Part shown: one piece after another, positions 506-26,200 of the stretch
Numbering within the stretch: the first letter of the stretch is position 1
Layout: every line of letters begins with the position of its first letter
Source: Candidatus Iainarchaeum sp.
Lineage (GTDB): Archaea; Iainarchaeota; Iainarchaeia; Iainarchaeales; JACQJH01
NCBI GenBank assembly: GCA_016205145.1
Contig: JACQJH010000001.1
Coordinates: 450,001 to 482,000, forward strand
Length of the DNA stretch: 32,000 nucleotides
Direction of reading: 5' to 3'
Notes under the pieces: generated by a model
The model's database searches: none
What the model was told of the DNA's origin: nothing
The model's input: only the letters and a program-made list of their open reading frames with translations
Made by a program: the position numbers and the translations under genes

Positions 506-685
506 TGCGCCCGCCGGGATTCGAACCCGGGTCATGACCTTGTTCCGCACGGAATGTCGTCCTTTACAGCAGGAATTTTTGCTGGGGTTTACTCGGCGTA
601 TTGCAAAAGCAATACGCCTTGGTTTCGAACCCGCCGGACGAAACCGGCGTGGGAAGGTCAGATGCTACCATTACACCACAGGCGC
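506..685 (-). tRNA. tRNA-Gly (anticodon CCC) interrupted by a 109-nt intron
   Basis: Minus-strand cloverleaf folded by hand. Acceptor GCGCCTG/CGGGCGC (7 bp, one G-U). D-arm GTGT-AATGGTA-GCAT. Anticodon stem TGACC/GGTCA. Loop TT-CCC-A-A. Variable region TGAC. T-arm CCGGG-TTCGAAT-CCCGG. Discriminator A. No encoded CCA. The mature length would be 71 nt. Confidence 0.9.
541..649 (-). other. tRNA intron at canonical position 37/38 with a bulge-helix-bulge motif
   Basis: A central 4-bp helix (TTCC, nt 32-35, paired with GGAA at the intron 3' end) is flanked by 3-nt bulges CA|C and CA|A. The intron interior folds into several hairpins, including CGCCGG-TTTCGT-CCGGCG, GGCGTATTGC-TTTT-GCAATACGCC and CAGCA-N8-TGCTG. 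Confidence 0.8.
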
Positions 686-2920: not shown

Positions 2921-2989
2921 AACCCAAATACCCCACTTTCTTTCTTTTCATTTTTTTGCGGGCTGGTGCAATTGGATTTTTTTGATTCC

Positions 2990-3517
2990 ATGAACGCGAA
3001 AACCGCGCATCTTTCCAGAGCTTTCCGCATTGTGTTTTCCCGGCCCAAATATTCGCTTCTTGCCATTTTTCTTGCCATGGCTCTTTTTTTGGGTGTAAAC
3101 TTTCTTGTCAACTGGCGCCTGCTTTCGGGTTTCGTGCTTGGAAACTTTCCGCTGTCAAACAAAATCACGGTCCTTTCCGGATTAGCGCAGGGAAGCCTGC
3201 TAAACAACACGACTGAAACTTTTTTTTCCTTCGCCGTCGTGTCATTGCTAATCGGCGTGAACGTTTCGCTTTTCGCCTATCGCATCAGGCATTCGGGCTT
3301 GGACAAAAAGGCGGGCGCGAGCGGCATTCTGGGCGGGTTTTTCGGGCTGTTTGCCGCGGGCTGCACGGCCTGCACGCTTTCGCTTGTGGCATTTTTCGGT
3401 TTCGCGGGATTGTTTGCGCTGCTGCCTTTCAGGGGCTTTGAAGTGTGGGCATTGGGAATCGCGGTCCTCATGTTGAGCATTTACTGGAATTCGAAAAGCA
3501 TCTGCGGAGTCTGCTAG
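2990..3517 (+). CDS. 4-TM membrane protein, CxxC paralog 1 (TM3 GCTACT, C-terminal SICGVC)
   Basis: Four hydrophobic segments, a basic TM2-TM3 loop (YRIRHSGLDKK), an intramembrane CTAC and a terminal CGVC. It is a paralog of 8247-8717 and 11225-11701. The start is ATG 2990 or GTG 2966. Confidence 0.75.
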   Translation: MNAKTAHLSRAFRIVFSRPKYSLLAIFLAMALFLGVNFLVNWRLLSGFVLGNFPLSNKITVLSGLAQGSLLNNTTETFFSFAVVSLLIGVNVSLFAYRIRHSGLDKKAGASGILGGFFGLFAAGCTACTLSLVAFFGFAGLFALLPFRGFEVWALGIAVLMLSIYWNSKSICGVC

Positions 3518-3529
3518 CAGTTCGGGGGA

Positions 3530-4096
3530 ATGCGCATGGGCCTGACAAAACACGAAAGGAAACAGCTGAAAAAAACGGAACGGCTTGAAAGCGAAAGGAC
3601 CCTTGGCGAAAAAAAGCGGAAGGAAAATTTCCTGAAAAACGCGGGCATGGCAATCCTTGCAATCGCGGTTGTCGCGGCAATCGCCTTTTTTGCGTTGCAG
3701 GCAAATGCCAACAGGCCCAAACTGGACACGCGCGGCATTTCCTTTCCGTTGGTGAACGTGCACTGGCACGCCACGCCCCGCATTTTTTTGTGCGGCGGGG
3801 AAAAGTTGATTCCGACGCCGCCTGAAACAAATCCTTTGCTGCACACGCATGAGGACAGGCTCATCCACATCGAAGGCAGCGTTTCCGGGCCGGAGCAGAT
3901 AACCCTGGAAAGGTTTTTTGACGGCATCGGCATAAAGTTTTCTTCAACCGGAATCTGGGGCAAAAGGAACGGCGACACCTGCGAAAACACGGGCAAGGCG
4001 GGAAAGGTTTCAATGAAGGTCAACGGTTCCGCAAACACTGAGTTCCAGAATTTTGTGCCAAAGGACGGCGACGTGATAGAAATTCGTTTTGAATAG
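3530..4096 (+). CDS. membrane-anchored exported protein with HWH / HTHED motifs (unknown function, possible metal site)
   Basis: 188 aa with a K/E-rich N-terminus, one TM, then VNVHWHATPRIFLCGG...LLHTHEDRLIHIEG...VNG...DGDVIEIRF. GGGGG precedes ATG 3530/3536. Confidence 0.7.
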   Translation: MRMGLTKHERKQLKKTERLESERTLGEKKRKENFLKNAGMAILAIAVVAAIAFFALQANANRPKLDTRGISFPLVNVHWHATPRIFLCGGEKLIPTPPETNPLLHTHEDRLIHIEGSVSGPEQITLERFFDGIGIKFSSTGIWGKRNGDTCENTGKAGKVSMKVNGSANTEFQNFVPKDGDVIEIRFE

Positions 4097-4106
4097 GCGT
4101 TGTGAC

Positions 4107-4301
4107 ATGAATAAAGTGAAACAAACCGCGTTGTTCACCTGCCCGGAATGCGGCGCAAAATCGGAAATAGCGGTTCCAACCGGCAGGTGCCTTGCCTTTC
4201 ACGAATGCGTGGCATGCCATAAAATCATCGCGGCAAAAAAATCCTGTTGCGTCATCTGCGACTACTCCGACAAGAAGTGCCCTGTTTCAGCAAAACACTG
4301 A
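4107..4301 (+). CDS. small Cys-rich protein resembling the GDCCVxC-domain family (10 Cys in 64 aa)
   Basis: Sequence MNKVKQTALFTCPECG...FHECVACH...KKSCCVICDYSDKKCP. It lies 10 nt after the previous stop. Confidence 0.6.
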   Translation: MNKVKQTALFTCPECGAKSEIAVPTGRCLAFHECVACHKIIAAKKSCCVICDYSDKKCPVSAKH

Positions 4302-4364
4302 CTGGCCGCACTTTTGATTGTTTGGCTTTTTTTTGGCGCTCAGGGGCTGTTCCGCTTTTTCCAC

Positions 4365-4411
4365 ATGGTTTCAACAACGGTTATCTATGGTTTCAGCCGC
4401 ATTGTTTGCAT
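4365..4411 (+). promoter_or_regulatory. shared promoter/operator module, copy A (ATGGTTTCAAC-N11-ATGGTTTCAGC-N7-TTTGCAT)
   Basis: It aligns colinearly, with no indels and 37/47 identity, to 10681-10727. The first spacer contains a TATA-like TTATCTAT. It lies 42-88 nt upstream of ATG 4453. Confidence 0.55.
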
Positions 4412-4452: not shown

Positions 4453-5130
4453 ATGCAGGGTTGTTGCGGGGAAGGGCACAAGTCCGGTTCCCATAAGTCT
4501 GGTTCGGCTGGCCAGCAAGCGGAATTCAAAACCAGTGCCGGCGGCAAAAAGCTGGGTTTTGGAAAAACCGCATTGACTGTGGTTTTGGCCTTGGCTGTTG
4601 TAGCAGGACTGCTGTTTTTCCTTCGCCCCGGCTCGACTGGACAGGTGTCCGCAACCGCGACGGGCAATACTGTCGGTGCTGTGGCGCCGGGTTTTGAGTT
4701 GAAGGACATTGCCGGAAACAGCGTGAAGCTGAGCGATTTCAAGGGCAGGGCTGTCATACTTTTTTTCAACGAGGGCGGAATGTGCTATCCTTCGTGCTGG
4801 AACCAGATAAAGGCTCTGGCAACGGATGAAAGGCTTAACAACGAAAACGTGGCGTCTTTCTCCGTGGTGGTTGACAACACTTCGGACTGGGAGAAAATCA
4901 CGGCTCACGTGCCCGGCTTTTCGCAGTCGGGCCTGCTCTTCGACACTTCAAAGGTTGTTTCGTCAAGTTACGGGGCGCTGAACATGCCGTCTTCGATGCA
5001 TGGCGGCATGATGCCGGGGCACACATATTATATCATCGGAAAGGACGGCAAAATAAAGTTCATTTTCGACGACCCGCAGATGGGCGTGAGGAACGACCTG
5101 CTTGCCGCTGAAATAGCAAAGCTGGTTTGA
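4453..5130 (+). CDS. membrane-anchored thioredoxin-fold (redoxin/TlpA-like) protein with an N-terminal MQGCCGEGH tail
   Basis: APGFELKDIAGNSVKLSDFKGRAVILFFNEGGMCYPSCW is a redoxin-type beta-alpha-beta with the Cys pair spaced CxxxC. It has one TM. I chose ATG 4453 because GGAGGAG lies 6 nt upstream and the promoter module would otherwise fall inside the ORF. Confidence 0.75.
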   Translation: MQGCCGEGHKSGSHKSGSAGQQAEFKTSAGGKKLGFGKTALTVVLALAVVAGLLFFLRPGSTGQVSATATGNTVGAVAPGFELKDIAGNSVKLSDFKGRAVILFFNEGGMCYPSCWNQIKALATDERLNNENVASFSVVVDNTSDWEKITAHVPGFSQSGLLFDTSKVVSSSYGALNMPSSMHGGMMPGHTYYIIGKDGKIKFIFDDPQMGVRNDLLAAEIAKLV

Positions 5131-5155
5131 CGGCTGGATTGTTTTTGGTGGTGGC

Positions 5156-6034
5156 GTGGGCGAACTGCTTTTAGGCGCGTCAATAATAACCGCTTTTGTG
5201 GCGGGAGTCGCGGCATTGTTCGCGCCGTGCTGCATTACCGTGCTCTTGCCCGCCTACCTCGGCTCGGTTTTCAGGCAGATGCGCACGGTTTTCCTCATGA
5301 CTTTCGTTTTCTTCCTGGGCCTGCTCGCGGTTTTCCTGCCGCTCGGCCTCGGCTTCGCGGCGCTCGGCGAAGCGTTCAGGCAGTTTCACGACGTCATTTT
5401 CGTCGGCGGAAGCGTTTTCCTCATAGTGCTTGGCGCCTCGATGCTTTTGGGAAAGCACTTTTCAATGCCATTTGCACCGCGCCCGTCTCCAAAAGTTACT
5501 GGTGCGGTTTCGGTTTTCGCGCTCGGCGTGTTCTCCGGCATAGCGACGCTTTGCTGTGCGCCCGTGCTTGCCGGAGTGCTGGCGCTTTCGATAATGCCGG
5601 GTTCGGTTTTCTGGGGCGGAGTCTACTCGCTGGCTTACGTGCTTGGCATGACGATTCCGTTGTTCGTAATTGCCTTCGCGCTTGACAAGTCGGATGCCCT
5701 TGAAAAAATCCGGCTGCTCAACAGGACCGTCGAATACGGCTTCGGCGGAGAAAAAATCAGCCTGCTTGCATCCGAAATGGTTGCAGCGTTGATGTTCATC
5801 GGAATGGGCTTGCTGACGATTTACTTTTTCATGACCGGGCAGCTTGCACAAAATTCCGGCTTCCAGGTTTCCACGAACGTGATGCTTGCAGGAGTGGCGG
5901 ATTTTGCCTCGAAGTATTTTTCGTGGGCACCGCCGGTTGCATTGGCGGGCGCGGTTGCGCTGATTTTGGCCGGCCTGGCGTTCATTGCCTTCAAAGAGAA
6001 GCATGGCCGGGGAAACGAAAAAAGGGAATCCTGA
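5156..6034 (+). CDS. CcdA/DsbD-family transmembrane thiol-disulfide (or thiophilic metal) transporter
   Basis: Polytopic, with two pseudo-repeats: FAPCCITVLLP (C25, C26) and TLCCAPVLAG (C133, C134). GTG start with GGTGGTGG upstream. It directly follows the redoxin gene. Confidence 0.75.
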   Translation: MGELLLGASIITAFVAGVAALFAPCCITVLLPAYLGSVFRQMRTVFLMTFVFFLGLLAVFLPLGLGFAALGEAFRQFHDVIFVGGSVFLIVLGASMLLGKHFSMPFAPRPSPKVTGAVSVFALGVFSGIATLCCAPVLAGVLALSIMPGSVFWGGVYSLAYVLGMTIPLFVIAFALDKSDALEKIRLLNRTVEYGFGGEKISLLASEMVAALMFIGMGLLTIYFFMTGQLAQNSGFQVSTNVMLAGVADFASKYFSWAPPVALAGAVALILAGLAFIAFKEKHGRGNEKRES

Positions 6035-6050
6035 TGGGAGGGATGAAAAC

Positions 6051-6260
6051 GTGATTGCAAAAATAATCGAAAGCGCAAAGCGCAACCATCTCGCGCAGAT
6101 GGCAATCTGCTGCCTCTTGCCGGTGCTGCTGATAATCGCGTTGCAGCTTTTGGGTTACACGGGTTTCTGGGTTTATGCCCTGGCCCTCGCTTTGTGCATC
6201 GGCTCGCACATTGCAATGGCGGCTATTGGCGCGAAAAAAGAGGGGCAGTCATGCCATTAG
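6051..6260 (+). CDS. small 2-TM protein resembling DUF2933 (metal-resistance-associated)
   Basis: Sequence HLAQMAICCLLPVLLIIALQLL...LALCIGSHIAMAA...SCH. GTG 6051 is preceded by GGGAGGGA at 6 nt. ATG 6003 is an alternative start. Confidence 0.5.
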   Translation: MIAKIIESAKRNHLAQMAICCLLPVLLIIALQLLGYTGFWVYALALALCIGSHIAMAAIGAKKEGQSCH

Positions 6261-6376
6261 ACTTAGGAAAGCACCGCGGCTGGCTGGAAAACGCCTTCTG
6301 GCTTCTCGTGCTCGCAGTCGCATACATTGCAATGCAAAAAGCAATGCATCCCGGCTGGACGGTTTTCGGAATCTGA
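6251..6376 (+). CDS. 41-aa single-TM peptide
   Basis: ATG 6251 overlaps the end of the previous ORF, with AGAGGGG 5 nt upstream. The hydrophobic core is AFWLLVLAVAYIAM. Confidence 0.35.
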   Translation: MPLDLGKHRGWLENAFWLLVLAVAYIAMQKAMHPGWTVFGI

Positions 6377-6464
6377 ATCCGCCGGGTGTATTTAGCCTGA
6401 TTTGGAAAAACTAATATAAATGCCGCTGCGCATCCATTAAAAACGCAGGAGGGCGGGATTAATC

Positions 6465-8189
6465 ATGGCGGGATTTGATGGCAGGACTGTCATTGGCTTG
6501 GCTTTGGTGGCCGTAATCGTGTTTGGGGCGGCGTTTTACATTGGCACATCCGGAAATTCCGGAATGCGTTCAGAGACGCGGCCGGCCGGAAGCGCGGCCG
6601 GGCAAACGGGCGCGGCATTCCCTTCCGGTGAATTGTCCGCCGGCGACAGGGCCATGATGGAGCACTGCAAGTCCATGCCGCAAATGCCGGGGTGCGAAAA
6701 ATTCGCCGGTCAGGAAGCCGCCGCAAATGGCGGTGCGGGTGCAAACGCCGGTTACTCTGATTCAGTTGCCGGGCTTTCCGCGGCAGGCGGAACCGCGGTT
6801 TATGATGCGAAAGACGGCGGAAAAATAACCCTGTCAGCGTCGGCCGTCAAAAAAACCGTTGCCGGCACGGAAGTCAGGATGCTTGCATACAACGGCCAGA
6901 TTCCGGGACCCACGATAAGAGTGAAACAGGGAAGCTCTCTGGAAGTGGAATTCATAAACGGCCTTGACTCCGAAACGACTGTGCACTGGCACGGCGTGAG
7001 AGTAAAAAACGATTTTGACGGCGTTCCGGGCGTGACGCAAAAGCCGGTCAAGCCCGGGGAAAAGTTTGTCTACCCGCTGGAGTTTCCGGACGAGGGCATA
7101 TACTGGTATCATCCGCACATGAGAGAGGACTACCAGCAGGAGCTCGGGCTTTACGGCAACATCATCGTCGAGCCGTCCGATGAAGGCTCTTACAACAAGG
7201 TCAACCGCGAAATGACGCTTGCGCTTGACGACATTCTGATGGAAGGCAATGGCATTGCCGCGTTCTCCGCCGATTTTGCGACGCATTCCCTGATGGGAAG
7301 GTTCGGGAACGTGATGCTGGTCAACGGCAGTGACAAATTTGAAATGGCCGCGCTGAAAGGCGAAACTGTGAGGTTTTTCGTCACGAATGCCGCGAACGCA
7401 AGGACATTCAACTTGGTTTTCGGGGGATTGAAGTTGAAGGTTGTCGGCGCGGACAGCGGAAAGTATGAAAAAGAATTTTTCGCGGACTCGGTTGTGGTGG
7501 CGCCGTCGGAAAGGTACGTTGTGGAAGTGCTGTTTGACGGGGAGGGAACATACAACATCCTCAATTCGACGCCTGAAGGAAAAACGGTTCTCGGCAAAAT
7601 AGCCGTGTCGGGCCGGCAGGCGGAAGAGGATTATTCCAAGGAGTTTTTTGAAACAATGGAAAATTCCCGGGTTGCTGACAGCATTTCCGGCATGAGGCGG
7701 TATTTTGACAAGCCCGCGGACCATGAAATAAGAATCGGCGTGGACCTGATGGGCATGAGTCATGGCAGCATGGCGATGGCTCAGGGAACCGGCGGCATCG
7801 AGTGGGAGGACGAAATGCCGCAAATGAACCTGGCCATGAACAGCAGGATAATGGAATGGCAGTTCATTGACGTGAAAACCGGGAAAAAGAACGAGGGCAT
7901 AAGCTATGAGTGGAAAAAAGGCGACAAAATCAAGTTGAGGATTTTCAACGACCCGGATTCCGCGCACCCCATGCAGCACCCGATCCATTTGCACGGCCAA
8001 AGGTTCCTGGCCATAAGCAGTGACGGGGTGGAAAGCGAAAACCTGGCGTGGAAGGACACGGTTCTGGTCCCGTCGGGTTCCACGGCGGACATTCTTGTGG
8101 ATGTCTCGAATCCCGGAAAATGGATGCTGCACTGCCATGTCCCGGAACACATGGAAAGCGGAATGCACACGACGGTAAACGTAATATGA
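6465..8189 (+). CDS. multicopper oxidase (CueO/CopA-like cuprous oxidase), N-terminally membrane-anchored
   Basis: All four MCO copper motifs are present: HWHG, WYHPH, HPIHLHG and HCHVPEHMESGM. There are Met-rich segments (MMEHCKSMPQMPGC; MGMSHGSMAMAQG...MPQMNLAMNSRIM). GGAGGGCGGG lies upstream of the ATG. Confidence 0.92.
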   Translation: MAGFDGRTVIGLALVAVIVFGAAFYIGTSGNSGMRSETRPAGSAAGQTGAAFPSGELSAGDRAMMEHCKSMPQMPGCEKFAGQEAAANGGAGANAGYSDSVAGLSAAGGTAVYDAKDGGKITLSASAVKKTVAGTEVRMLAYNGQIPGPTIRVKQGSSLEVEFINGLDSETTVHWHGVRVKNDFDGVPGVTQKPVKPGEKFVYPLEFPDEGIYWYHPHMREDYQQELGLYGNIIVEPSDEGSYNKVNREMTLALDDILMEGNGIAAFSADFATHSLMGRFGNVMLVNGSDKFEMAALKGETVRFFVTNAANARTFNLVFGGLKLKVVGADSGKYEKEFFADSVVVAPSERYVVEVLFDGEGTYNILNSTPEGKTVLGKIAVSGRQAEEDYSKEFFETMENSRVADSISGMRRYFDKPADHEIRIGVDLMGMSHGSMAMAQGTGGIEWEDEMPQMNLAMNSRIMEWQFIDVKTGKKNEGISYEWKKGDKIKLRIFNDPDSAHPMQHPIHLHGQRFLAISSDGVESENLAWKDTVLVPSGSTADILVDVSNPGKWMLHCHVPEHMESGMHTTVNVI

Positions 8190-8246
8190 GCGGCTGCCCG
8201 GAACCGGTTTTAATAACTGCGTTGCGGATTCATTCCGTGGCATAAA

Positions 8247-8717
8247 ATGCGAAAATGGTGGCAAGTGGACAAAAAAATAAAATTCCTGTTGGTTGGGGCG
8301 GGGCTTTCAATTCTGCTTTTCATAATCATGGGAACGCCCACGGCCCTCGTGCCCAACCCATTCATTCACTACAAGAGGATGGTTGCCGCGGCATGGTTGG
8401 ACTATTTTTTTCTCGCCTCAACCTCGATAATGCTTGCGGCATTGATTTCGCTGAAACTGTATTTCAGGTCGGGGCGCGGCCTCGGCGCAAAAGAAATCGG
8501 CGGGGGCGCGCTGGGCTTTCTTGCGTTCAGCTGCCCGATTTGCAATGCTCTTCTCGTGGCTTTGCTCGGCGGCGCGACGATAATGGCGTTCGTGGAGCCG
8601 TTGAGGCCGCTGTTTGGAGTCGTGTCGATTGCGATTTTGGGTTGGCTTATTTATGGCGCGCTGAAATGCGGGGGATGCAATGGCGCCGCAGGCCGGCACG
8701 GCATGAAAATTAATTAA
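8247..8717 (+). CDS. 4-TM membrane protein, CxxC paralog 2 (TM3 SCPICN, C-terminal KCGGCNG)
   Basis: Same architecture as 2990-3517. Cys96/99 lie in TM3 and Cys141/144 at the C-terminus. It starts 57 nt after the MCO stop. Confidence 0.75.
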   Translation: MRKWWQVDKKIKFLLVGAGLSILLFIIMGTPTALVPNPFIHYKRMVAAAWLDYFFLASTSIMLAALISLKLYFRSGRGLGAKEIGGGALGFLAFSCPICNALLVALLGGATIMAFVEPLRPLFGVVSIAILGWLIYGALKCGGCNGAAGRHGMKIN

Positions 8718-8756
8718 TCTGCTTGCATTTACATACAATCTGTTGCGGTGCTTGGA

Positions 8757-9455
8757 ATGGCGTTTCCTTTGAACCCCTGGCTTTTCGGCTCGGCCGCCCT
8801 GCTGTTGTTGTGGCTGGCCATATGGCTTTTCAGGCCCGCTTTGCGCAGGGAAATGCTTTTGGTCAGCCTTTTCACCGCGCCTTTGGGTCTGACGGAACCG
8901 CTTTTTGTGCCCGAATACTGGACTCCGCCTTCGCTGTTCAACCTTGCCGCCACAACGGGCTTTGACATTGAAAGCATAGTCTTCTGCTTTGCCGCCGGGG
9001 GAATAGCGGCGGTCATCTACGAAATCCTGGTGAAATCGAGGCACAGTGAAATGTCCATGAATGAAATGCGTTCTAAACGGCACAGGTTCCACAAAATCGC
9101 GCTCGCCTCTCCCGCAATCGTTTTCGTGCCCCTGTACCTTTTTTCCGGCCTGAACCCGATATATGTTTCAATAATTGCGCTGTTTGCCGGCGCAATGGCG
9201 ACTGTCGTGTGCAGGCCGGATTTGAAGAAACCGGTCTTAACCGGAGGAACAGTATTTTTGCTCATCTATTTCTTTTTCTTCCTGTTTTTGAGCGTGGCAT
9301 TCCCGGATTTTGTGCCGAACGCGTGGAATTTTTCGGCCATCAGCGGCATTCTTGTTTTCGGCGTCCCTTTTGAGGAGCTGCTGTTCGCGCTTTCCTTTGG
9401 AATGGCGTGGGCGGGCCTTTACGAGCATTTTTTCTGGAAAAAACTGGTTCGTTAG
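8757..9455 (+). CDS. polytopic membrane protein, possibly of the lycopene-cyclase-domain (CrtYc/d-like) family
   Basis: About 7 hydrophobic segments, with repeated motifs FDIESIVFCFAAGG and VPFEELLFALSFG that resemble the PxEE(x)LF signature. The functional assignment is weak. GTG 8748 is an alternative start. Confidence 0.5.
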   Translation: MAFPLNPWLFGSAALLLLWLAIWLFRPALRREMLLVSLFTAPLGLTEPLFVPEYWTPPSLFNLAATTGFDIESIVFCFAAGGIAAVIYEILVKSRHSEMSMNEMRSKRHRFHKIALASPAIVFVPLYLFSGLNPIYVSIIALFAGAMATVVCRPDLKKPVLTGGTVFLLIYFFFFLFLSVAFPDFVPNAWNFSAISGILVFGVPFEELLFALSFGMAWAGLYEHFFWKKLVR

Positions 9456-9485: not shown

Positions 9486-9911
9486 TCAGTGCGCGCCGCC
9501 GCCCTTGAAAGTCCGCGCGCAGTGCCTGCAGCAGAATTTCAGGGTTTTTCCGTTTATTTTTTCCGTGTGGCCGCCTTCATAGACCATGCAGGCGCAGTGC
9601 GCGCACTGCGAAAGCTTCGGTTCCACGGCAAGGTCTATGAGGCCGCCGAACCTGTGCAGCATCGACTTGCAGAACGCCTTGCCTTCCGGCGTCAGAGCGT
9701 AAACCTTTTTTTCCCTCGCGCCCTCTGATTTGACCCGGATGTATTTTGCCTTTTCAAGTTTTGCGAGGAAAGGGTAGATCTGGCCGGGTGAAACCCTGCT
9801 TTCGAGCCTTTCGCTTATCTCCTTTATGAGCTCGTAGCCGTGCCTGGGGCCGTCGCACAGAAGAAGCATGCAATAGAATTTGGCCATGTTTGTGATCCTG
9901 ATTTCTTTCAT
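9486..9911 (-). CDS. PadR-type winged-helix regulator fused to a C-terminal TRASH metal-binding domain
   Basis: The N-terminal half (LLLCDGPRHGYELIKEI...GQIYPFLAKLEKAKYI...YALTPEG) is PadR-like. The C-terminus CAHC-x20-CCRHC fits the TRASH pattern C-x2-C-x19-22-C-x3-C. Confidence 0.85.
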   Translation of the reverse strand: MKEIRITNMAKFYCMLLLCDGPRHGYELIKEISERLESRVSPGQIYPFLAKLEKAKYIRVKSEGAREKKVYALTPEGKAFCKSMLHRFGGLIDLAVEPKLSQCAHCACMVYEGGHTEKINGKTLKFCCRHCARTFKGGGAH

Positions 9912-9952: not shown

Positions 9953-9973
9953 ATATATCTAAATTTGATATAT
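9953..9973. promoter_or_regulatory. palindrome ATATATC-N7-GATATAT in the divergent promoter region
   Basis: Perfect 7-bp inverted repeat embedded in TATA-like sequence. It lies 42-62 nt from the PadR-TRASH ATG and 70-90 nt from ATG 10043. Confidence 0.45.
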
Positions 9974-10042: not shown

Positions 10043-10630
10043 ATGGTGGAAAAATCGGGTTTGCTGGCATTGGTTGTATTGGCGGGTTTAATCGCGTTGC
10101 CTGTTGCAATGGCGCAGGGTTCGGATGATTTTGCGCAGGCGAAGGCGCTGATCGACAGGAATGCGTCCTGCGGCAGCCTGAGCAGCGAACAGCTTGAACT
10201 GATCGGCGATTATGTGATGGAGCAGATCCATCCCGGCGAAGCCCACGAATATGTGGAATCGATGATGGGCGGCGAGGGCTCGGATAGCCTGAAACGGGCG
10301 CACATTGCCATGGCTTACAGGTTCTACTGTGCAGGCTTAGGTTCTGGGTTGAACGCAAACAGCCCGTATTATGGCGTAATGGGCGGCTATGGGATGATGG
10401 GTGGCATGATGTACGGCAACTATGGCGGGATGATGGGTTCTGGCAATGCCTATTCCACTTATGGGCTTATGGGATACGGCGGCGGAACCGCAAATTATCC
10501 TGGAATGATGGGCTATAATGCGTCAACCGGCGGCCTTGGCCTGCTTACGCAGGTCTTGTTTGTGGTGGCGCTTGGTCTCGCAGTTCTGTTCCTTGGCATT
10601 AAAGTCTTCGGGCAATTTCAAAAGCGGTGA
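10043..10630 (+). CDS. secreted Met/Gly/Tyr-rich protein with a C-terminal TM anchor (putative Cu(I)-binding)
   Basis: Signal-like N-terminus LLALVVLAGLIALPVAMAQG. A helical domain carries HPGEAHEYVESMMGGEG. A low-complexity stretch reads YYGVMGGYGMMGGMMYGNYGGMMGSG...PGMMGY. The tail is hydrophobic. Confidence 0.7.
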   Translation: MVEKSGLLALVVLAGLIALPVAMAQGSDDFAQAKALIDRNASCGSLSSEQLELIGDYVMEQIHPGEAHEYVESMMGGEGSDSLKRAHIAMAYRFYCAGLGSGLNANSPYYGVMGGYGMMGGMMYGNYGGMMGSGNAYSTYGLMGYGGGTANYPGMMGYNASTGGLGLLTQVLFVVALGLAVLFLGIKVFGQFQKR

Positions 10631-10680
10631 TTGAGGATTTGGGGTTGAATGTCCTGCGGGTTGTATGCCGGCCCGGAACA

Positions 10681-10727
10681 AAAGGTTTCAGCAATGCCTA
10701 TTTATGGTTTCAGCAGGAATATTTGCA
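10681..10727 (+). promoter_or_regulatory. shared promoter/operator module, copy B (AAGGTTTCAGC-N11-ATGGTTTCAGC-N7-TTTGCAT)
   Basis: It is colinear with 4365-4411. The first spacer contains a TATA-like TATTTAT. It lies 70-116 nt upstream of ATG 10797, the first gene of the cop operon. Confidence 0.55.
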
Positions 10728-10796
10728 TAGTTGTGTTTTTTTGCATCCGGTCTTTTTTATGAATTTTATGGGTGAAGGCTCTAAAGTGGTGGTCAG

Positions 10797-11228
10797 ATGA
10801 ATGAGGTTAAAGTCCAGCGTGTTTTCCTGTTGCTTGTGTTAGGCGCCCTGGTCGTGTTCGGCGGAATGGTTCTGTTTTGGTTTGGCGCTAATGCAGCGCC
10901 CGCCAGATCGGCATCGGTAAATAATCAGGGTATTGTTGCCGGAGGGAACGGCCAGGCACAGGACATTTACATCAGGGCGCTTTCAAGCGGAACCTATGAC
11001 AAAAGCGAGGTCACGGTAAAGAAAGGCGTGCCGGTCAGACTGCATTTTTCCGCTGACCCTGGCGCGGGCTGCGGAAGGTATCTGGTGCTATACGGCCTGA
11101 ACGTCAATGCGCTTTCCAAGAACGGCGAAGAAGCGGTTGTCGACTTCACGCCGCAACAGGAAGGCAGCTTTGAATACAATTGCGGTATGAGAATGTTCAA
11201 ACCCGGAACATTGAAGGTTTTGGCATGA
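10797..11228 (+). CDS. membrane-anchored cupredoxin-like domain protein
   Basis: One TM followed by VTVKKGVPVRLHFSADPGAGCGRYLV...VDFTPQQEGSFEYNCGMRMFKPGTLKV. This is the typical cupredoxin_1-type C...CGM.M pattern seen in cop operons. Confidence 0.75.
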   Translation: MNEVKVQRVFLLLVLGALVVFGGMVLFWFGANAAPARSASVNNQGIVAGGNGQAQDIYIRALSSGTYDKSEVTVKKGVPVRLHFSADPGAGCGRYLVLYGLNVNALSKNGEEAVVDFTPQQEGSFEYNCGMRMFKPGTLKVLA

Positions 11229-11701
11229 GCAGGCTTGAAGCTTTGGCCTTGGTGTTGTCGGAGCGCAGTCAGCTCGCAATATTTCTTGCGGCGTTTGCCG
11301 TGCTTTTGCCTTTGCTGGCAGTCAGCTCGGCAATAATTTCGCCGGTGGGTTTTGCGTTCAATCCTTTGGCTGAACCGCTTGGAATCGCTTTGACAATCGT
11401 CATTGCAATCCTGATGGGCCTGAACCTGACGGTCCTGTTGCATGCCCACGCACGCAATGCAAATGCAAAAAAGGGGACTGTCCTGTTCGGCGGCCTGGCG
11501 GCAACGTTTGCCACTGCCTGCCCTGTTTGCCCGCCGACATGGATTGTCCTGCTCGGCTTCGGCTCGGCCGCGGGCTTTCTTTCTGGAACCGGGATTTTCA
11601 TTGCAATTGGCAGCATAGTCTTGCTTTCATTGGCTCTTTACAATTCTTTGGGTTGCGCAGACGGAAACTGCGGGGTGGACAAGAATGGAAAAAATGATTA
11701 A
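11225..11701 (+). CDS. 4-TM membrane protein, CxxC paralog 3 (TM3 ACPVCP, C-terminal GCADGNCG)
   Basis: ATG 11225 overlaps the cupredoxin stop (ATGA). Cys99/102 lie in TM3 and Cys144/149 at the C-terminus. Same architecture as the other two paralogs. Confidence 0.75.
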   Translation: MSRLEALALVLSERSQLAIFLAAFAVLLPLLAVSSAIISPVGFAFNPLAEPLGIALTIVIAILMGLNLTVLLHAHARNANAKKGTVLFGGLAATFATACPVCPPTWIVLLGFGSAAGFLSGTGIFIAIGSIVLLSLALYNSLGCADGNCGVDKNGKND

Positions 11702-11888
11702 AGTGAAAGGCATGCATTGTAAGTCATGCGAAATCCTTGTCGCGGACTCCGTGTCTGAAATCAGCGGCGTGGAAAGCGTCAAGGCGGACAGCAGGAAGGG
11801 AACTGTTGTGGTGAATGTCCGGGATGCCGGGATTCTCGGCAGGGTGAAAGCCGCGATTGAAAAGGAAGGCTACAAGGTGGAAAACTGA
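11685..11888 (+). CDS. copZ: CopZ-like heavy-metal-associated (HMA) copper chaperone
   Basis: 67 aa with a GMHCKSC motif and a ferredoxin-like HMA length. GGGGTGGA lies 5 nt upstream. Confidence 0.88.
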   Translation: MEKMIKVKGMHCKSCEILVADSVSEISGVESVKADSRKGTVVVNVRDAGILGRVKAAIEKEGYKVEN

Positions 11889-12808
11889 TGGAATTCGAAC
11901 TTGAACTTGGCGGAATGTCCTGCGGCTCATGCGAGCGCATAATCGAAAAGGTTGCCGAGAAAGCCGGCGCGGAAGTCAAGGAAATCGACTCGCGCAAAGG
12001 CAGGGTCACAATCGTTTCCGAGGAATCCAAAATAGCCGGAATAAGGGAAGAGCTTGCCAAGCGCGGCTTTGCCGAAAAGGGCAGCAGGGAAGACGTGGGC
12101 AGGGGCGACCTGAAAAACGTTGTTGGCTACATTTTGGCAGTGCTGTCAATCCAGCCGCACGTCGAAGAGGAAGCCAGGCTCGTCAACCACGCCATTGCGT
12201 CCGCGATTATTTTGGCTGGGCTGAACATTCTGGCTTACCTGTTTTTTGTGCAGGGCCTGGAGAACGGCGAAAAGTACCTTCCATTCCTTGCATTGGCGAT
12301 TGTTGCGTCAATAACATCCGTTTTCGCGTACCTTCACGCCAAATGCTACCGTAAAATCATGTCCTGCCAGAACGGCATGATGGTCGGAATGACCATGGGC
12401 ATGGTTCCGGGCTTCATGGTCGGCGCAATCATTGCCGCGACAAACGGAATGTTTCTTGGCAGCGTGGCCGGAATTCTGACCGGCGCATGGCTTGGCCTGA
12501 AGAGCGGAAAATGCTGCGGCGTAATGGGCGCAATGGAAGGAGTCATGGCCGGCCTGATGTCCGGTTTGATGGGGCCGATGACAGTGATCATGACCCTCAA
12601 CGACAACATGCTCGTTCTGCTTTACCTGATTTTCGGAATCTCTGTTTTTTTGCTCGGCGGCCTGAGCTACATGCTGTACCGCGAGGAAGGCGAAACCCCG
12701 GTTGCGAACACAAAGCTGCCGGAATTCATTGTTCTCGGCATTGCGTTCAATCTTGTGCTGCTGGCGATAATGCTTTTTGCGGTTAAGGGGCCATTGAGGT
12801 TCGTGTGA
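11888..12808 (+). CDS. HMA domain fused to a Met/Gly/Cys-rich ~7-TM membrane domain (unknown family)
   Basis: The N-terminal 62 aa form an HMA domain with GMSCGSC. After a charged linker come TM segments including [18 protein letters not shown] and [30 protein letters not shown] overlap joins it to copZ. Confidence 0.75.
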
Positions 12809-12818
12809 GGGCGATGGC

Positions 12819-15275
12819 ATGAAAAAAATCACAGTCGGCATTAAAGGCATGCATTGCGCTTCCTGCGCCACGATAATCGAGCGTCGCCTCAAAAAAGTTG
12901 AAGGCGTGAAGGATGTCTCTGTCAGCGTCGCGGCAAACAGGGCGGCGATCGAATTTGATGAGGGCATTGCGGGCATTGAACAGTTTGGAAAGGCAGTGGA
13001 AAGTGCAGGGTACGAACTCGTCCAGCCGCAGGGGCAGGATTCCGGCGATGCGAAGATAACAATGCATGTAAAGGGCATGGATTCGCCGCATTGTGCGGGC
13101 ATTGTCGGGAATGCGCTCAAGGGAACCGCTGGAGTGAAAAAATTCGACCTCAGCTTCCAGAATGCCTCGGCAATGGTTGAATTCGATGCCTCCATCACCG
13201 GCTTTGATAAAATAAAGGCTTCGATTGCAAGGGCAGGCTATGATGCGGAACTGCTTGTCGGGGAGGAAACAGTGGACCAGGAGAAGGCCGCACGCGATAA
13301 AGAAATCGCGGAATTGAAGCGCAGGCTCGTTTTTTCGGCATTGCTGACCGTGCCGGTTGTCCTGCTTGCATTGCCGGAAATGCTGAAAACTGTTATGGCA
13401 TTCGAGTACCCGCAGTTCATAATGCAGAACATGGCTGCATTGCAATTGCTGTTTTCAACGCCGGTGATGTACCTTAACAGGGACATGTTTGTGAGGGGCT
13501 TCAGGGGGCTGTTGAATAACATGCCGGGCATGGACAGCCTTGTCGCTTTGGGCGTCGGGACAACCTATGCTTACAGCGCAATCGTGGCCCTGCGCATCAT
13601 TGGCGGAGTCATGTATTTTGAAACCGCTGCTTTGCTTCTCACGTTCATATTGCTTGGCAGGTACCTTGAGGCGATTGCCAAAGGAAAGACTTCCGAGGCA
13701 ATCAAGCGCCTTGTAGGGCTTGCGCCGAAAACCGCAATCGTGGTCAGGGCAGGAAAAGAGGTTGAAATTCCGATCAAGGAAGTTGTTGTCGGGGACATTG
13801 TCATTGTGAAGCCGGGCAGCAAGATTCCGGTTGACGGCGTCATAGTCGAAGGCGAAAGCAGCATTGACGAGAGCATGATTACAGGGGAGAGCATGCCCGT
13901 GCACAAGCGAAAAAATGACATTGTGATCGGCGGGACAATCAACGGCAATGGCTCTTTCAGGTTCAGGGCGACAAAAATCGGCAAGGACACAATGCTTGCG
14001 CAGATAATCCGTTTGGTGGAGGACGCGCAGGCAAGCAAGGCGCCGATCCAGAAGCTTGCAGACACTGTCGCAGGCTATTTTGTGCACGCAGTAATAGTGC
14101 TTGCATTGCTTGCCTTCGCTTACTGGTATTTCGTGGCAGGCCAGCCGTTTCTTTTCGCGCTCACAATCCTTGTTTCAACGCTTGTGATTTCCTGTCCTTG
14201 CGCAATGGGCCTTGCAACCCCGACAGCGGTCATGATTGGAACCGGCAAGGGCGCCGAGAACGGCGTGCTCATAAAAAACGCGGAGAGCCTTGAAATCCTG
14301 CATCAGGCCAAAACCTTTGTGTTCGACAAGACCGGCACAATCACCATGGGAAAGGCGTCGGTAACGGAAATCGTTCCGGTCGGAATCAAGGCAGCCGACC
14401 TTCTTTGCCTTGCGGCTTCCGCGGAAAAGAATTCCGAGCATCATTTAGCGCAGGCAATCGTGAAAAAGGCGAAGGAATCGAGGCTGAAAATTGCAGAACC
14501 GAAATCTTTCAAGGCGATTCCGGGGCATGGCGTCGAGGCAAAAGTCGGGGCGAAGAATGTTCTCATCGGAACTGTTGTCCTGATGAAAAAAAGCGGGGTC
14601 CGGATCGGAAACGATTTGGTTGGCAGGATGCAGTCGCTTGAAGAGCAGGGAAAAAGCGTTGTCCTTGTTTCGTCGGACGGAAAGCTTGTGGGAATGGTTG
14701 CGATTGCCGACACCATAAAAGAGCATGCTGCCGAGGCTGTAAGGCAATTGCAGGCAATGGGTTATGAAACCGTCATGATAACCGGCGACAATTCCCGCAC
14801 TGCAAACGCGATTGCAAAGCAGGCAGGCATTTCAAGGGTGCTGGCGCAGGTGCTTCCGTCGGACAAGGCCGCGGAAGTCAAGAAATTGCAGTTGAACGGA
14901 AGAAAGGTTGCCTTTGTCGGCGACGGCATAAACGATGCCCCGGCCTTGGCGCAGGCCGACATTGGAATCGCGATTGGCAGCGGCACCGACGTTGCGATTG
15001 AAAGCGGCGGAATAGTTTTGGTGAAAAGCGATTTGCGCGACATTGTGACGGCGGTAAAGCTTAGCAAATACACTCTCGGCAAAATAAAGCAGAATCTGTT
15101 CTGGGCTTTCGGCTACAATGCGGTCGGCATTCCGCTCGCGGCAGGCGCATTCTATCCTTTCACCGGCTGGCTTTTGTCGCCGGTCATAGCCGGAGCGGCA
15201 ATGGCTTTCAGCTCGGTAAGCGTTGTTTCGAACAGCCTGCTCATGCGCGGATGGAAACCGGATAAAAAGGTTTGA
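12819..15275 (+). CDS. copA: Cu(I)-translocating P1B-type ATPase
   Basis: 818 aa. HMA1 has GMHCASC. HMA2 is degenerate (GMDSPHCAG). It carries the TM CPC motif ([11 protein letters not shown]), DKTGT, MITGDN and GDGINDAP. Confidence 0.95.
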
Positions 15276-17548: not shown

Positions 17549-18523
17549 TTATTCCTTGATTTCAGCGGCATCGATCTGCCCGTCGCCGTCCAAATCCAGG
17601 CCTTCGACAACTTTTGCGTGAATCCTTTCATTGAAAAGATTTGGCTTGGCAATCTTTTCAACGCTTTTTGCCATTGCGACAACCGCGGCCTTGGTGCCAG
17701 CATTGCGGTTTCCGGCTATGAGCAGAATGCGCTTGTCGCCGAAGAAAGGGTGTGGCGCCTTGACGATTATGCCTGTTGCGTCCTCGGTGTAGGTTTTTTC
17801 CGAAGCCGAGCTTTCAATGCCCCATGGGCCATTGCTTTGCACGAATTTTACGGGCAGCCTGTCGTTTATTTCCTGGCAGATCTTGTTTGTGATCGGCCCG
17901 CCGACAATGATTGCGTTGCTGTCAAGCTTTTCCAGTGACTCGACCATTGTGTCCAATAGCACGAAAGGGTATTTTATTTTGGAGGCATAACTGCCGAGGA
18001 TTGCTGCCAGTTCGACTGCCAGGTGGGAGTCCCTTGCCCTCGCCTTGAGCGGGCCGTGCGGATCGGGCGAGCCGATGATGATTTTGGCTGAAAAAACGCC
18101 CTTATGTATAAACGGTTCGAGGAATTCTGCAATCTCTTTAGGCACTTCCTTTTCCCTGCCTTCGATGGCCTGCTTTTCCCCGCCGGCATCCGGTGTAACG
18201 ATTGACACCGCGCCGAAGTCCGCGGAAAAGAATTTTGCCAGGGCGCCCTGTTTTTCCTGCGTCTTCTGCACCGACACAAGTCCGGATTTTTTCAGCTGGT
18301 TGATGTAATAGTATGCTTTCTGCTCCGGCATGCCCAGCTTTTTCGCCAGCTCGGCAGGATAAGCCGGCTTTTTCACCAGCTCAGAGTAAATTTTCCATGC
18401 GCTATCGCTGGCAAGCGGCCTTATTTCGCTTGCCTTGTGGGCAATTTTTGTGGCGATTCGCCTCCGGACCGCGTTCCTTTCAAATTCGACAAAATCCGCC
18501 AAAAACACCACCACTTTTAACAT
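17549..18523 (-). CDS. winged-HTH protein with an uncharacterised alpha/beta C-terminal domain and a terminal EF-hand-type loop
   Basis: The wHTH reads AYPAELAKKLGMPEQKAYYYINQLKKSGLV. C-terminal domain motifs include IIVGGPITN and ILLIAGNRNAGTKAA. The last 15 aa contain DLDGDGQIDAAE, which fits DxDxDGxIxxxE. Confidence 0.7.
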   Translation of the reverse strand: MLKVVVFLADFVEFERNAVRRRIATKIAHKASEIRPLASDSAWKIYSELVKKPAYPAELAKKLGMPEQKAYYYINQLKKSGLVSVQKTQEKQGALAKFFSADFGAVSIVTPDAGGEKQAIEGREKEVPKEIAEFLEPFIHKGVFSAKIIIGSPDPHGPLKARARDSHLAVELAAILGSYASKIKYPFVLLDTMVESLEKLDSNAIIVGGPITNKICQEINDRLPVKFVQSNGPWGIESSASEKTYTEDATGIIVKAPHPFFGDKRILLIAGNRNAGTKAAVVAMAKSVEKIAKPNLFNERIHAKVVEGLDLDGDGQIDAAEIKE

Positions 18524-23278: not shown

Positions 23279-26200
23279 TCAGTAGATTATTTCCTTGCCT
23301 TTCATCGCGTCCAGGAAAATCGTGCGGTTCTTTCCGTCATAGCTTTTCAGCCTTCCCTCGTATGCCGGCATGTAAACGGTTTCGATTTTTTTGACGACGA
23401 TCTTGCTCCACAGCCTTTTCAACGATTCCGCCGCCTGTTCCTTTGAAACGCGCGGGGCCTCGATTGCCACGGATTCCTGCTGTTTCAATGGCAGGCCGTG
23501 CAGCGAATTCATTATGGGGTGCAGCGGGTTTGCGGGCAAATCAACGCTCTCGTTTAGCCTGAAGGAAGTTTCATTGTTCGCGGTTTCAATTTTGATTATG
23601 TTCTTGTCCGCGAGGCTTTTCAGCAGCCTCCTGAGCCTGGCCTCGTCCATGCCGGTTTTCTGCATCAATGCTTCCAGGCCGGCCTTATCCTTTTTGAGAG
23701 CGTTGAAGAGAATCGCCTCGTTTTCGTTCAGCTGCGAAAATTCCTTGAATCCGCGTGACTCCAAAAACTCGTTTCCGGCATAGTGCAGGAATTCGCCGCT
23801 CAGGGAATTGACGTATGCCTCGCCGACATTGAAAATTTCCTTGGAGCCGAAATAGTTGAATTTGAACGCGAAAACGGGAATGAATTTGAGGTAAACGCTT
23901 TCCAGCATCTCCTCCTTTCCGAAAAATCCCAAAAACTTTTTTTGCCGCATGGCATTGAACGCTTTTCTCGCGGCTTCCTCATTGACCTGCACCGGAAACG
24001 CGAGCAGTTCCGGCGGTTCCTGCACTCCGGCTGCGGTTTCAGGTTTCGGCGCCTCTTCCTTCAAAACCTTCTTTTCGATTTCCTCCGCCTTTCTTGTCGC
24101 CTCTTCGAGCTTTTTCTCCATTTCCTCTTCGTAGCCGGGCACGCTCACGGTCTGCTTTTCGGAGTCAAATTCTATTCCCTTGCGGTCGAGCTGTTCCATT
24201 ATGTCCGATGGTTCAATGTTCGCCTTGAACTTGTTGTTGACAGTGTTTATGATCTGGCGGATTTTTTCAAGCTCAATCACGCCTTCCTTTTCAATTTTGG
24301 CGAGGCACATTTCCAATGCAAGCTTTTTCGCCTTCTCCGGATCCAGGTCCTTCGACAGTTCTGCGGTTTCAGCTTCCCTGCCTTCGTGCTGTGACATTCT
24401 CGGCCTGACCCTCATTACGAACGCCCTGCTTGTCTCCTCGCGCCTGTCGCCGGTAAGCGCGGTTCCAACGGGAAGCGTTTTGATGAACGTGGGCTTCCTG
24501 AATTTTTTTGGAATCAGGGTGGGAGTCCTCTTGAAAACGGATTTTATGTCGTCGTCGAAGACAAGCTTGTGCGTCATTATTATGTCAAGCTGTGACAGCA
24601 CGTGCGAGTCGATTGCAGACGGCTGTTGTGTTGCGAAGACAAGCGAGCAGCCGGGCTGGCGGCCCTGCTTCACATATTCTATGAGCGAAGTTGTCGCAGG
24701 CGTCTTGACGTTTCCGCTCGGAATGAGCGTATGCGCCTCGTCTATGAACAGCCATGTCGGCGGAATCTCAAGCTCCATCATTTCATCCGCATCAACAGTC
24801 TTGTGCCTGCTAGCCGCCTCACGCCTTGTGGTTTTTTTGCGCGCTGCAAGAATGCGCCTGCCAAGAATGCCTATGACCAGCGCGGAAACATTGTCCTCAA
24901 GGAAAGAGGTGTCGATGATTGTGAGCTGGTTTTCCATGCTCAGTTCGCCCAGAGGTGTGCCCTTATCGGAGAAAACGCCCCAGTTTTTTGCGGCGTCAAA
25001 CCTTGAAACCAGCGCCCTGATAGAATCGGGCTTGTAGCCCTTGTCCGAGGAATGCAGTTCCTTGTCGTTTTCAAGGCAGTTTATCAGGTCGTCAAGCGTG
25101 TAATTGCCTTTTTTTCCCGCAATTTTCGGTCCTTCCTTCTGCTCGTAGCCGCTTCTCACCTTTGAAATGACCTTTTCTATGAGCAGGCCGCTCGGCGAAA
25201 ACCTTTCAATGCCGAATGTGAGGCACCAGTCGTCGGTTGAAAGCAATGAGGCGTGCATGGAAAACGTCGCGTCAAACGTTCCGCCCGGCACCTGGTCCTT
25301 GACTCCCGCAGGAATGAATACCTTGAGGTTGTCCAAACCCTGCGGTGTCAGATCCCATTTTGCAAGCATGCCAATTTCCCTTTCATCCTTGTTCGGGAAC
25401 CTCATCGACCAGAACACGCCGATGGGGTCTATCACGATTATGCCGACGTTCTTGTTTTTGTGCGCCAGCTCTTCCGCGAGAACGCCCAAAACGTAAGACT
25501 TTCCGGATCCGCGGGCACCGTTCACGAAAATGACGTGCGGGTTGAGGCTGTCCACCAATACATTGAAATCGTTGAGTTCGGAGTCCTGCACTTTTCCGAC
25601 AAACAGGCCGGCTTCCTCGCCGTACTTTTCAAACAACGACTTTTTCCTGCCGATGAACGCAATCTTTTTTTTCTCGTCAGACAATAAGCTGAGTTCGAAC
25701 CTGCCGCCTTCCTCGTCTCTCTCCTTCTCTTTCTCGGTTTTCGCCTCGACCGGGTTTGGCTTGTGCTGGTCGGAATAAATGTCCGCTTCGCGGATGCCGA
25801 CTTCCTTGTCGAACGGCAGGAGTTCATCCTTCTGCGCGTAAATGGATGCCTTCTCCAGAATGACGTCCTTTATCTGCTGCTTGTCCTCTTCCTCCAAGGC
25901 GATTTGTTCAAGCTCGTCGTTCATTTCAAGGTCGTCAGCTGCCTGCTTTTTGGCCTTGACTCCCGCCGCATCTAAATCCGTTTCCGCGCCTTTTCCCGCC
26001 CTGCCTTCGCCGGCAATGCCATTCCCGCTTTCCTTTGCCGCGGCGTTTTGGGCGGGTTTTTGTTTCGCCTGCCTTTTCCTTTTCACGCGCTTTTCATCGG
26101 GCGCCGCGCTTTCAATAACGGTTTCGTTTTCGAACCCGGCTTTTTCGGCCGGAACGCCTTTTCCTTTTTCCGCTGTTTCCGGCGCGTTTTCTTCTGTTAT

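Follow-up and report, generated by a model that had tools for sequence, protein, structure and literature searches.

Archaeal promoters under repressor control, among them those of MDR1, Phr, LrpA and TrmB, have operators that overlap or follow the TATA box. For MarR/ArsR-like winged helices, which normally bind dyads, a pair of direct repeats at a distance of 22 bp would be an unusual target. ToxR, CadC and TcpP are tethered to the membrane, sense conditions outside the cytoplasm and bind promoters directly by a winged helix. This winged helix is N-terminal and of the OmpR type, and a single membrane helix joins it to a large periplasmic domain; the proteins act mostly as activators, and those of the ToxR type bind direct repeats. 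To our knowledge, nothing is known experimentally about gene regulation in DPANN archaea, almost all of which are uncultivated.

Copper regulation in archaea has been described for CopR, an Lrp-type helix-turn-helix protein with a TRASH domain found in Pyrococcus furiosus, Thermococcus and the Sulfolobales (PMC7830388). CopR is a soluble, octameric member of the Lrp family with a cytoplasmic TRASH sensor, and its motif is the semi-palindrome TTNNCAWWWTGNNAA; the P. furiosus protein binds directly upstream of BRE and activates (PMC7830388). PadR proteins, another family relevant to this locus, recognise ATGT-N8-10-ACAT inverted repeats (PMC3506622).

The locus described here lies in a window of 32 kb, by which we mean the whole stretch of DNA that was analysed. 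It resembles the CopR system in a predicted archaeal copper-responsive regulon with copA and a chaperone, in a candidate regulator gene that is divergent from copA in related genomes, and in a predicted site directly upstream of BRE. It differs from that system in that the sites are direct GGTTTCA repeats and in that the protein linked to them, a member of the DUF7343 family, has neither an Lrp nor a TRASH domain; no Lrp-family match was found among the window proteins scanned. Taken as a whole, the best explanation is in our judgement probable, though well short of certain: the window would carry box promoters that belong to a copper and thiol regulon of DPANN archaea and answer to a DUF7343 regulator, with the PadR-TRASH protein of the island standing apart.

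Two 47-nt elements in a copper and thiol-redox island

All genes of the island are on the + strand except padR. The first are those for a DsbA-like protein (2072-2920), a membrane protein (2966-3517), an unknown protein (3530-4096; 188 aa in the comparison with the AR10 genome, below) and a GDCCVxC small protein (4107-4301). Presumed operon A (4453-9455) follows, with an AhpC/TSA-redoxin (4453-5130), a CcdA/DsbD_TM protein (5156-6034), a small membrane protein in the open reading frame 5985-6260, whose true start is probably later, a putative multicopper oxidase (6465-8189), assigned by reading its translation rather than from a Pfam scan, and two membrane proteins (8247-8717 and 8748-9455). 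The gene for a PadR-TRASH regulator (9486-9911, - strand; Pfam PadR 1.2e-16, TRASH 7e-5) is divergent from that for a Gly/Tyr/Met-rich protein (10043-10630, start ATG 10043). Presumed operon B (10797-15275) encodes a cupredoxin (10797-11228), a CPVC membrane protein ending at 11701, an HMA chaperone (11685-11888), an HMA-membrane protein (11888-12808) and the P-type ATPase CopA (12819-15275). Co-transcription within each operon is presumed from the shared strand and the short gaps, with a 205-nt gap before 6465 in operon A and, for operon B, the same gene order in the related contig L003. A further winged-helix protein of the window, with HTH_20/TrmB and S-layer domains, is encoded at 17549-18523.

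The 47-nt element is present in two copies, both located between genes and in the orientation of the genes 3' of them. Copy A (4365-4411, + strand) reads ATGGTTTCAAC-aacggttatct-ATGGTTTCAGC-cgcattg-TTTGCAT and ends 41 nt before ATG 4453 of the redoxin gene; copy B (10682-10728, + strand) reads AAGGTTTCAGC-aatgcctattt-ATGGTTTCAGC-aggaata-TTTGCAT and ends 68 nt before ATG 10797 of the cupredoxin gene. The initial annotation had placed copy A correctly and copy B 1 nt off, at 10681-10727. Its description of the element itself was sound: counted position by position, 37 of the 47 positions are identical, box 2 and TTTGCAT fully so, and in both copies the boxes start 22 nt apart. A repeat search aligned 4362-4411 with 10679-10728 as a 50-nt pair of 78% identity whose flanks are without similarity. 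The two-box pattern GGTTTCARC-N13-GGTTTCAGC, with up to three mismatches allowed, matched copies A and B only in the 32 kb; dinucleotide shuffles gave an expectation of 0.07 matches, and none of 100 shuffles reached two. Both copies also fit GGTTTCA-N15-GGTTTCA flanking a TATA with no mismatch in either 7-mer.

Read against archaeal promoter architecture, copy A would consist of a box 1 (ATGGTTTCAAC, 4365-4375) that is a predicted operator half-site directly upstream of BRE, a BRE-like AA (4376-4377; probably part of BRE itself) that together with a weak TATA-like stretch (GTTATCTAT) spans 4376-4388, and a box 2 (ATGGTTTCAGC, 4387-4397), the predicted second half-site, 22 nt from box 1 and between TATA and start site. 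Copy B repeats this layout, with box 1 (AAGGTTTCAGC) at 10682-10692, a BRE-like AA and the likewise weak TATA-like CCTATTTAT at 10693-10705 and box 2 (ATGGTTTCAGC) at 10704-10714; its box 1 reads ATGGTTTCAGC in the 94%-related contig L001. The TATA boxes would be centred near 4384 and 10701, which would put transcription starts at about 4408-4410 (G4408 to A4410) and 10725-10727, in or next to TTTGCAT (4405-4411 and 10722-10728), the predicted initiator region. TTTGCAT had been put forward in the initial annotation as the place of the start. It does lie at the right distance, 24-27 nt after the TATA centre, but it is not a motif conserved elsewhere: it reads TTTGCAG at the copy B site in L001 and is absent from the family consensus.

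The position of copy A also bears on gene annotation. A redoxin start at ATG 4453 had been proposed in place of TTG 4318, and it is the better choice, with GGAGGAG 7 nt before it and homologues of 195-203 aa. It is further preferred because the reading frame from 4318 would cross an element that is non-coding in more than 100 genomes, and we have corrected the start to 4453.

An Rfam search of the window found no structured-RNA family over the element region. An RNA element was rejected for this reason and because direct repeats cannot pair. Rfam's sole match to the window is a tRNA (506-685); ARAGORN found no tRNA in the window. An origin-recognition-box-like repeat was rejected too, as both the sequence and the context are wrong.

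Conservation of the promoter and the genes downstream

One genome per species (GTDB), 596 Gb in all, was scanned for the pattern GGTTTCAnnAA-N9-ATGGTTTCA, which has 18 fixed bases, and at least 120 stretches matched, against about 17 expected by chance from simple arithmetic. About 30 of the matches listed are bacterial, have no TATA and no gene downstream, and look like chance. At least 90 archaeal contigs, the complete AR10 genome among them, have the GGTTTCA-nnAA-TATA-ATGGTTTCA architecture; most are labelled Iainarchaeota/Diapherotrites, Micrarchaeota, Woesearchaeota/Nanoarchaeota, Undinarchaeota, Aenigmatarchaeota or Altiarchaeota, and a few carry other archaeal labels. The positions that the pattern leaves free form a canonical TATA in the archaeal matches listed (..CATATATATGG, ..CTATTAATGG; for example CCATATATATGG), and in related genomes the TATA positions read (C/A)(A/T)TAT(A/G)TAT. 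Among the scan matches listed, A or T fills on average 6.7 of the 9 free spacer positions in archaea and 4.8 in bacteria. Box 2 is followed in the archaeal matches by an AT-rich stretch, often by a Shine-Dalgarno sequence (GGTGAT), and by a start codon 15-50 nt on; the sequence after that is very often GGAATGCACTGC, the G-M-H-C codons of the HMA metal site. The canonical TATA, the Shine-Dalgarno sequence and the start codon of these other genomes bear out the initial reading of the element as a promoter with operator boxes around its TATA, and at the level of sequence the assignment of each 47-nt copy as a putative regulated archaeal core promoter, with BRE/TATA between two direct GGTTTCA boxes, holds.

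Because the scan pattern fixes the boxes, their conservation is better judged from a sample chosen by protein first. The consensus from that sample is aaaac.AtGGTTTCActAAa.caTAt.tATGGTTTCAG..ccaatat, and that of box 1 is AtGGTTTCA. A third direct box is present at -21 in 16 of 89 promoters, and an inverted TGAAAC at -9 in 6. Closer to the window, box pairs were seen at three places in contigs that encode a PadR-TRASH homologue: L001 (94% PadR identity) has one at the orthologous site, with the Gly/Tyr-rich gene on one side and the cupredoxin gene on the other, L003 (64% PadR identity) has at the same site the degenerate GGTTTCAcc-N13-TGTTTCGga around an AT-rich TATA, and L004 has a box pair in front of the homologue of the 8247-8717 gene.

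The genes behind the boxes are coherent in kind. Of 83 distinct complete open reading frames that start within 160 nt after the archaeal instances listed, 28 encode HMA proteins, and thioredoxin/DsbA-like, DsbD, cupredoxin and DUF411 proteins are also found among them; CopA is present in at least 52 box-pair loci. The targets in the window fit, with the redoxin and CcdA after copy A and the cupredoxin, HMA proteins and CopA after copy B. That the element defines a small regulon had been suggested from the window only, and the suggestion is supported, in that copper and thiol-redox genes follow the boxes both here and elsewhere. On this sequence evidence, the element is a predicted marker of a regulon that many DPANN lineages share and that joins copper export and chaperoning (HMA, CopA, cupredoxin) with extracytoplasmic thiol-disulfide functions (DsbA-like, redoxin, CcdA/DsbD). 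Two MAGs are represented by two motif-bearing contigs each (L047/L085 and L050/L080), and in both the candidate regulator described below is on one contig only, the pattern expected of one regulator that serves several promoters.

Candidate regulators of the boxes

When the open reading frames of the archaeal loci were clustered, the commonest neighbour of the boxes was a DUF7343 membrane protein, found in at least 61 loci. It has 165-185 aa, with a hydrophobic N-terminal helix, a short C-x5-C-x-H-E loop, a second hydrophobic helix and a C-terminal winged helix that matches Pfam DUF7343 (PF24034) with E values of 1e-8 to 2e-11. Of the 96 box pairs in the matches listed, 54 have the DUF7343 gene upstream in divergent orientation, within about 125 nt in 51 cases. 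The link was reproduced in reverse, from 63 metagenome loci picked by the DUF7343 protein alone, of which 53 had at least 200 nt upstream: GGTTTCA-N15-GGTTTCA, with at most two mismatches in total and within 350 nt, was found in 36 of the 53, against about 0.1 expected by chance from arithmetic. Nearly all of these box pairs are divergent from the DUF7343 gene, at -40 to -160. Relatives with at least 55% identity to the query have the box pair in about 29 of 31 cases, and the distant relatives in this sample (33-40% identity) are without boxes. Some DUF7343 genes have a weaker box-TATA-box promoter of their own at about -43, pointing to a leaderless transcript under autoregulation.

Like the invariant box, the recognition helix (K-[VL]-K-[SA]-H-R) hardly varies from phylum to phylum. 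The cysteine pair is missing from woesearchaeal members, so the signal may differ between lineages. An AlphaFold model (pLDDT 77) has a helix at residues 4-29, a loop at 30-45, a long helix at 46-96 and the winged helix at 100-166, and an N-in/C-in topology would place the winged helix in the cytoplasm. The family has attracted little annotation: each of its 93 database homologues goes under the name 'hypothetical', 'uncharacterized membrane protein' or 'DUF7343 domain-containing', the DUF label is the sole curated assignment, and NCBIfam offers no model. Against PDB sequences the regulator profile found nothing beyond weak matches to MarR/CodY winged helices and spurious ones to GPCR helices, Foldseek gave only generic winged-helix matches (E about 1e-3), and in the literature searched we found no paper that describes DUF7343, DPANN copper promoters, the motif or a membrane-bound archaeal regulator of this kind.

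The 32-kb window itself encodes no DUF7343 membrane regulator (the best tblastn E value, 0.004, is noise), and its link to the family comes from orthologous positions in AR10 and in Iainarchaeum andersonii (L076), genomes that do encode one. The AR10 island, for which L003 and L077 overlap at 99.8% identity, has the order CopA <- ... <- cupredoxin <- [degenerate boxes] <- Gly/Tyr-rich <- [palindrome] -> PadR ... DsbA-like <- [perfect boxes] -> DUF7343 <- unknown-188 <- DsbA. The window has the same genes, and at the place of DUF7343 in AR10, after the 188-aa unknown protein, it has the GDCCVxC gene and then copy A. In I. andersonii, which has no PadR at this locus, the cupredoxin-HMA operon and the DUF7343 gene are immediate divergent neighbours and a box pair lies in the gap that separates them. 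In L017 and L120 it is the redoxin-CcdA genes that follow a box promoter, and this promoter is divergent from the DUF7343 gene. Judged by these sequence associations, the likely regulator of the boxes is most probably the DUF7343 membrane winged-helix protein of about 170 aa.

The boxes might instead be bound by an unlinked factor, such as an ArsR-type protein, the HTH_20/TrmB and S-layer protein at 17549-18523 or a lineage-specific TFB/TBP variant, with DUF7343 a mere member of the regulon. At least nine box-pair loci contain an ArsR/HTH_5 gene, L005 has an ArsR-Fer4-DUF7343 operon with a box pair divergent from it, and the window encodes a further winged-helix protein and no DUF7343 gene. 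No other family comes near DUF7343 in frequency or in fixed divergent position, however, and sampling from the protein back to the DNA recovers the same link; the winged helix of DUF7343 is, moreover, a genuine one whose recognition helix is conserved, and direct-repeat boxes on both sides of the TATA are unlike a BRE variant. We regard an unlinked factor as improbable, although it is the most serious competitor to DUF7343.

Less likely still is the proposal of the initial annotation, that the PadR-TRASH protein, whose gene lies between the two copies, has the boxes as its operator and would repress both operons until Cu(I) binds TRASH. That this protein is the only DNA-binding protein of the island is true of the island, but uninformative, because the regulator of a regulon can be encoded elsewhere in the genome. 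TRASH is the copper sensor of archaeal CopR proteins (PMC7830388), and in the window, L001, L003, L004, L005, L037/L059 and L120 box pairs do lie a few kb or less from padR-TRASH. Yet by tblastn only 5 of the roughly 90 archaeal box-pair loci listed have PadR-TRASH within 8 kb (L037, L059, L077, L120 and, doubtfully, L089), a count to be set against the 54 of 96 box pairs with a divergent DUF7343 gene. The PadR-TRASH loci L006, L007 and L008/L009 have no box pair, even though in L008/L009 padR is directly divergent from the copA operon. The boxes extend to contigs that bear the labels of other phyla, whereas the named PadR-TRASH homologues are labelled Diapherotrites, Aenigmarchaeota or, for one partial match, Promethearchaeota. 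The labels Diapherotrites and Aenigmarchaeota would make the source of the window a DPANN archaeon, probably one of the Iainarchaeota.

The PadR-TRASH protein has a better candidate operator of its own. A palindrome, ATATATC-N7-GATATAT (9953-9973), unique in the window, lies between padR and the Gly/Tyr/Met-rich gene. It recurs upstream of padR-TRASH in L001/2, L003/L077 (one mismatch), L004, L007 (two copies), L008/9, L120 and L037/59 (one mismatch), always with a spacing of 7 nt and beside a TTTAAA-type TATA; in L008/L009 it is present where the GGTTTCA boxes are absent. Known PadR sites are inverted repeats, which a conserved palindrome of fixed spacing fits (PMC3506622), whereas the boxes are direct repeats and the nearest of them is 770 nt from padR. 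The palindrome is like PadR operators (PMC3506622) in being an AT-rich dyad in the regulator's own promoter, and the 47-nt element is unlike them in its direct repeats and in showing no co-occurrence with padR genes. For annotation, the two putative circuits of the island, box promoters and PadR-TRASH palindrome, can be told apart.

It is scarcely credible that the copies are a functionless chance match or remnant of local duplication, as their being only two in the window and their weak TATA-like spacers might suggest, given the shuffles, the unrelated flanks, the absence of an Rfam family from the region, the retention of the element at an orthologous site in L001, L003 and L076 and the recurrence of its architecture in more than 100 genomes at promoters of related genes; on the same grounds of unrelated flanks and promoter position in more than 100 genomes, a duplication remnant or mobile-element end was rejected.

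Proposed mechanism and comparison with known systems

If, as we favour, a DUF7343 protein is the regulator of the boxes, its mode of action can be sketched from the layout of the promoter. The 22-bp spacing would turn both GGTTTCA boxes to one face of the helix. The tethered regulator, as monomers or as a flexible dimer, would fill both boxes, and the third box at -21 where there is one, and the occupied boxes would shut out TBP, TFB and RNA polymerase, until copper or thiol-oxidative stress at an outside Cys/His/Glu loop lifts the block. Repression relieved by a signal at this loop is favoured because box 2, at roughly -22 to -12 between TATA and start, is placed such that a protein bound there would block recruitment of RNA polymerase, and because box 1 abuts BRE. 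By analogy, box 1 may also serve activation or dual control, as it occupies the site where archaeal activators such as P. furiosus CopR bind. The DUF7343 regulator of the window organism is assumed to be present in its genome and would be encoded outside the 32-kb window. PadR-TRASH would be a second, separate copper regulator, whose palindrome at 9953-9973 would control padR and the divergent gene.

The strongest form of this proposal, to which we would give even chances, is that DUF7343 proteins are membrane-tethered one-component factors that detect copper or disulfide stress on the outside of the cell and hold the TATA clamped between two GGTTTCA sites two helical turns apart, and that the window organism runs two parallel copper circuits. 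If this is true, DUF7343 would be a case, undescribed in the literature searched, of an archaeal sensor that binds DNA from the membrane and has a defined operator, and the two circuits would divide outside sensing, through DUF7343, from inside sensing, through the PadR-TRASH palindrome. The analysis gives a sharply defined predicted operator that spans lineages, a named candidate regulator family and a coherent set of copper and envelope thiol-redox targets. Regulon prediction directly from metagenomes becomes possible, and a simple in-vitro test is within reach.

Compared with the promoters of MDR1, Phr, LrpA and TrmB, the element is familiar in several respects: its predicted operator sites abut BRE/TATA and fill the stretch from TATA to start, and the putative regulator has a bacterial-type winged helix and a gene that is often divergent and probably autoregulated. 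It departs from them in having two, sometimes three, direct repeats in a fixed 22-bp (21-bp) phase around the TATA rather than a single dyad, a regulator that is predicted to be membrane-anchored, and a motif conserved across several labelled phyla. With ToxR, CadC and TcpP the proposed DUF7343 regulator would share outside sensing across the membrane, DNA binding by a winged helix and, for the ToxR type, direct repeats. Unlike them, it is built as a two-helix hairpin, its loop about 16 residues long, followed by a MarR/ArsR-like winged helix at the C terminus, and PDB sequence and NCBIfam searches detected no homology to them. If the membrane tether and outside sensing prove true, a signalling logic like that of ToxR and CadC would be added to archaea. 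By analogy, the proposed system resembles archaeal repressor-controlled promoters in function and ToxR/CadC in logic, and is a member of neither family.

Upstream gene and distant features of the window

Directly 5' of copy A, the GGTTTCA-box promoter at 4365-4411, lies a plus-strand gene (4107-4301) whose 64-aa product has a GDCCVxC domain (NCBIfam NF041374, E 4e-14); this gene fills the slot that is taken in AR10 (loci L003 and L077) by the gene of the DUF7343 regulator, a membrane-anchored winged-helix protein. A second DNA-binding protein of the window, encoded outside the copper/thiol-redox island (17549-18523, minus strand), has an HTH_20/TrmB winged helix at its N-terminus and an S-layer-like outer domain at its C-terminus. 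The 1041-aa HerA-like ATPase (23279-26404) and the Fic/DOC-domain protein (30154-30534) have no relation to the box-promoter finding. The 180-nt tRNA at 506-685 (minus strand), found by Rfam (43.5 bits) but not by ARAGORN, is presumably an intron-containing archaeal tRNA.

The palindrome beside padR-TRASH

A perfect 21-bp palindrome, ATATATC-N7-GATATAT, occupies 9953-9973, in the gap that separates padR-TRASH from its divergent neighbour. This palindrome recurs upstream of padR-TRASH in at least eight other loci with identical spacing, and it is probably the operator of PadR-TRASH. Directly after this palindrome promoter, L003 (about 9280-9330) and L004 (about 4500-4540) carry on the minus strand tiny Cys/Gly-rich ORFs with an SD, whose products, MCGACGGGGN and MGGNGCCGGGC (each followed by a stop), may serve as leader peptides that bind copper. 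In the window this place is taken by a gene for a Gly/Tyr/Met-rich protein of 195 aa.

DUF7343 variants in other loci

The GGTTTCA box pair was not found upstream of a distant DUF7343 subgroup (33-40% identity; metagenome loci L176-L189, many from samples with neighbouring JGI identifiers), which may recognise a different motif. The regulator variants of L014, L033, L072, L119 and L121, labelled mostly Woesearchaeota (L072, Methanosarcinales), are without the Cys pair of the loop between the membrane helices and have a longer DPLELE...M loop. In these five loci the box promoters precede, and drive, a gene for a secreted 130-160-aa protein that has no Pfam match and carries a YDxEVHEQL motif.
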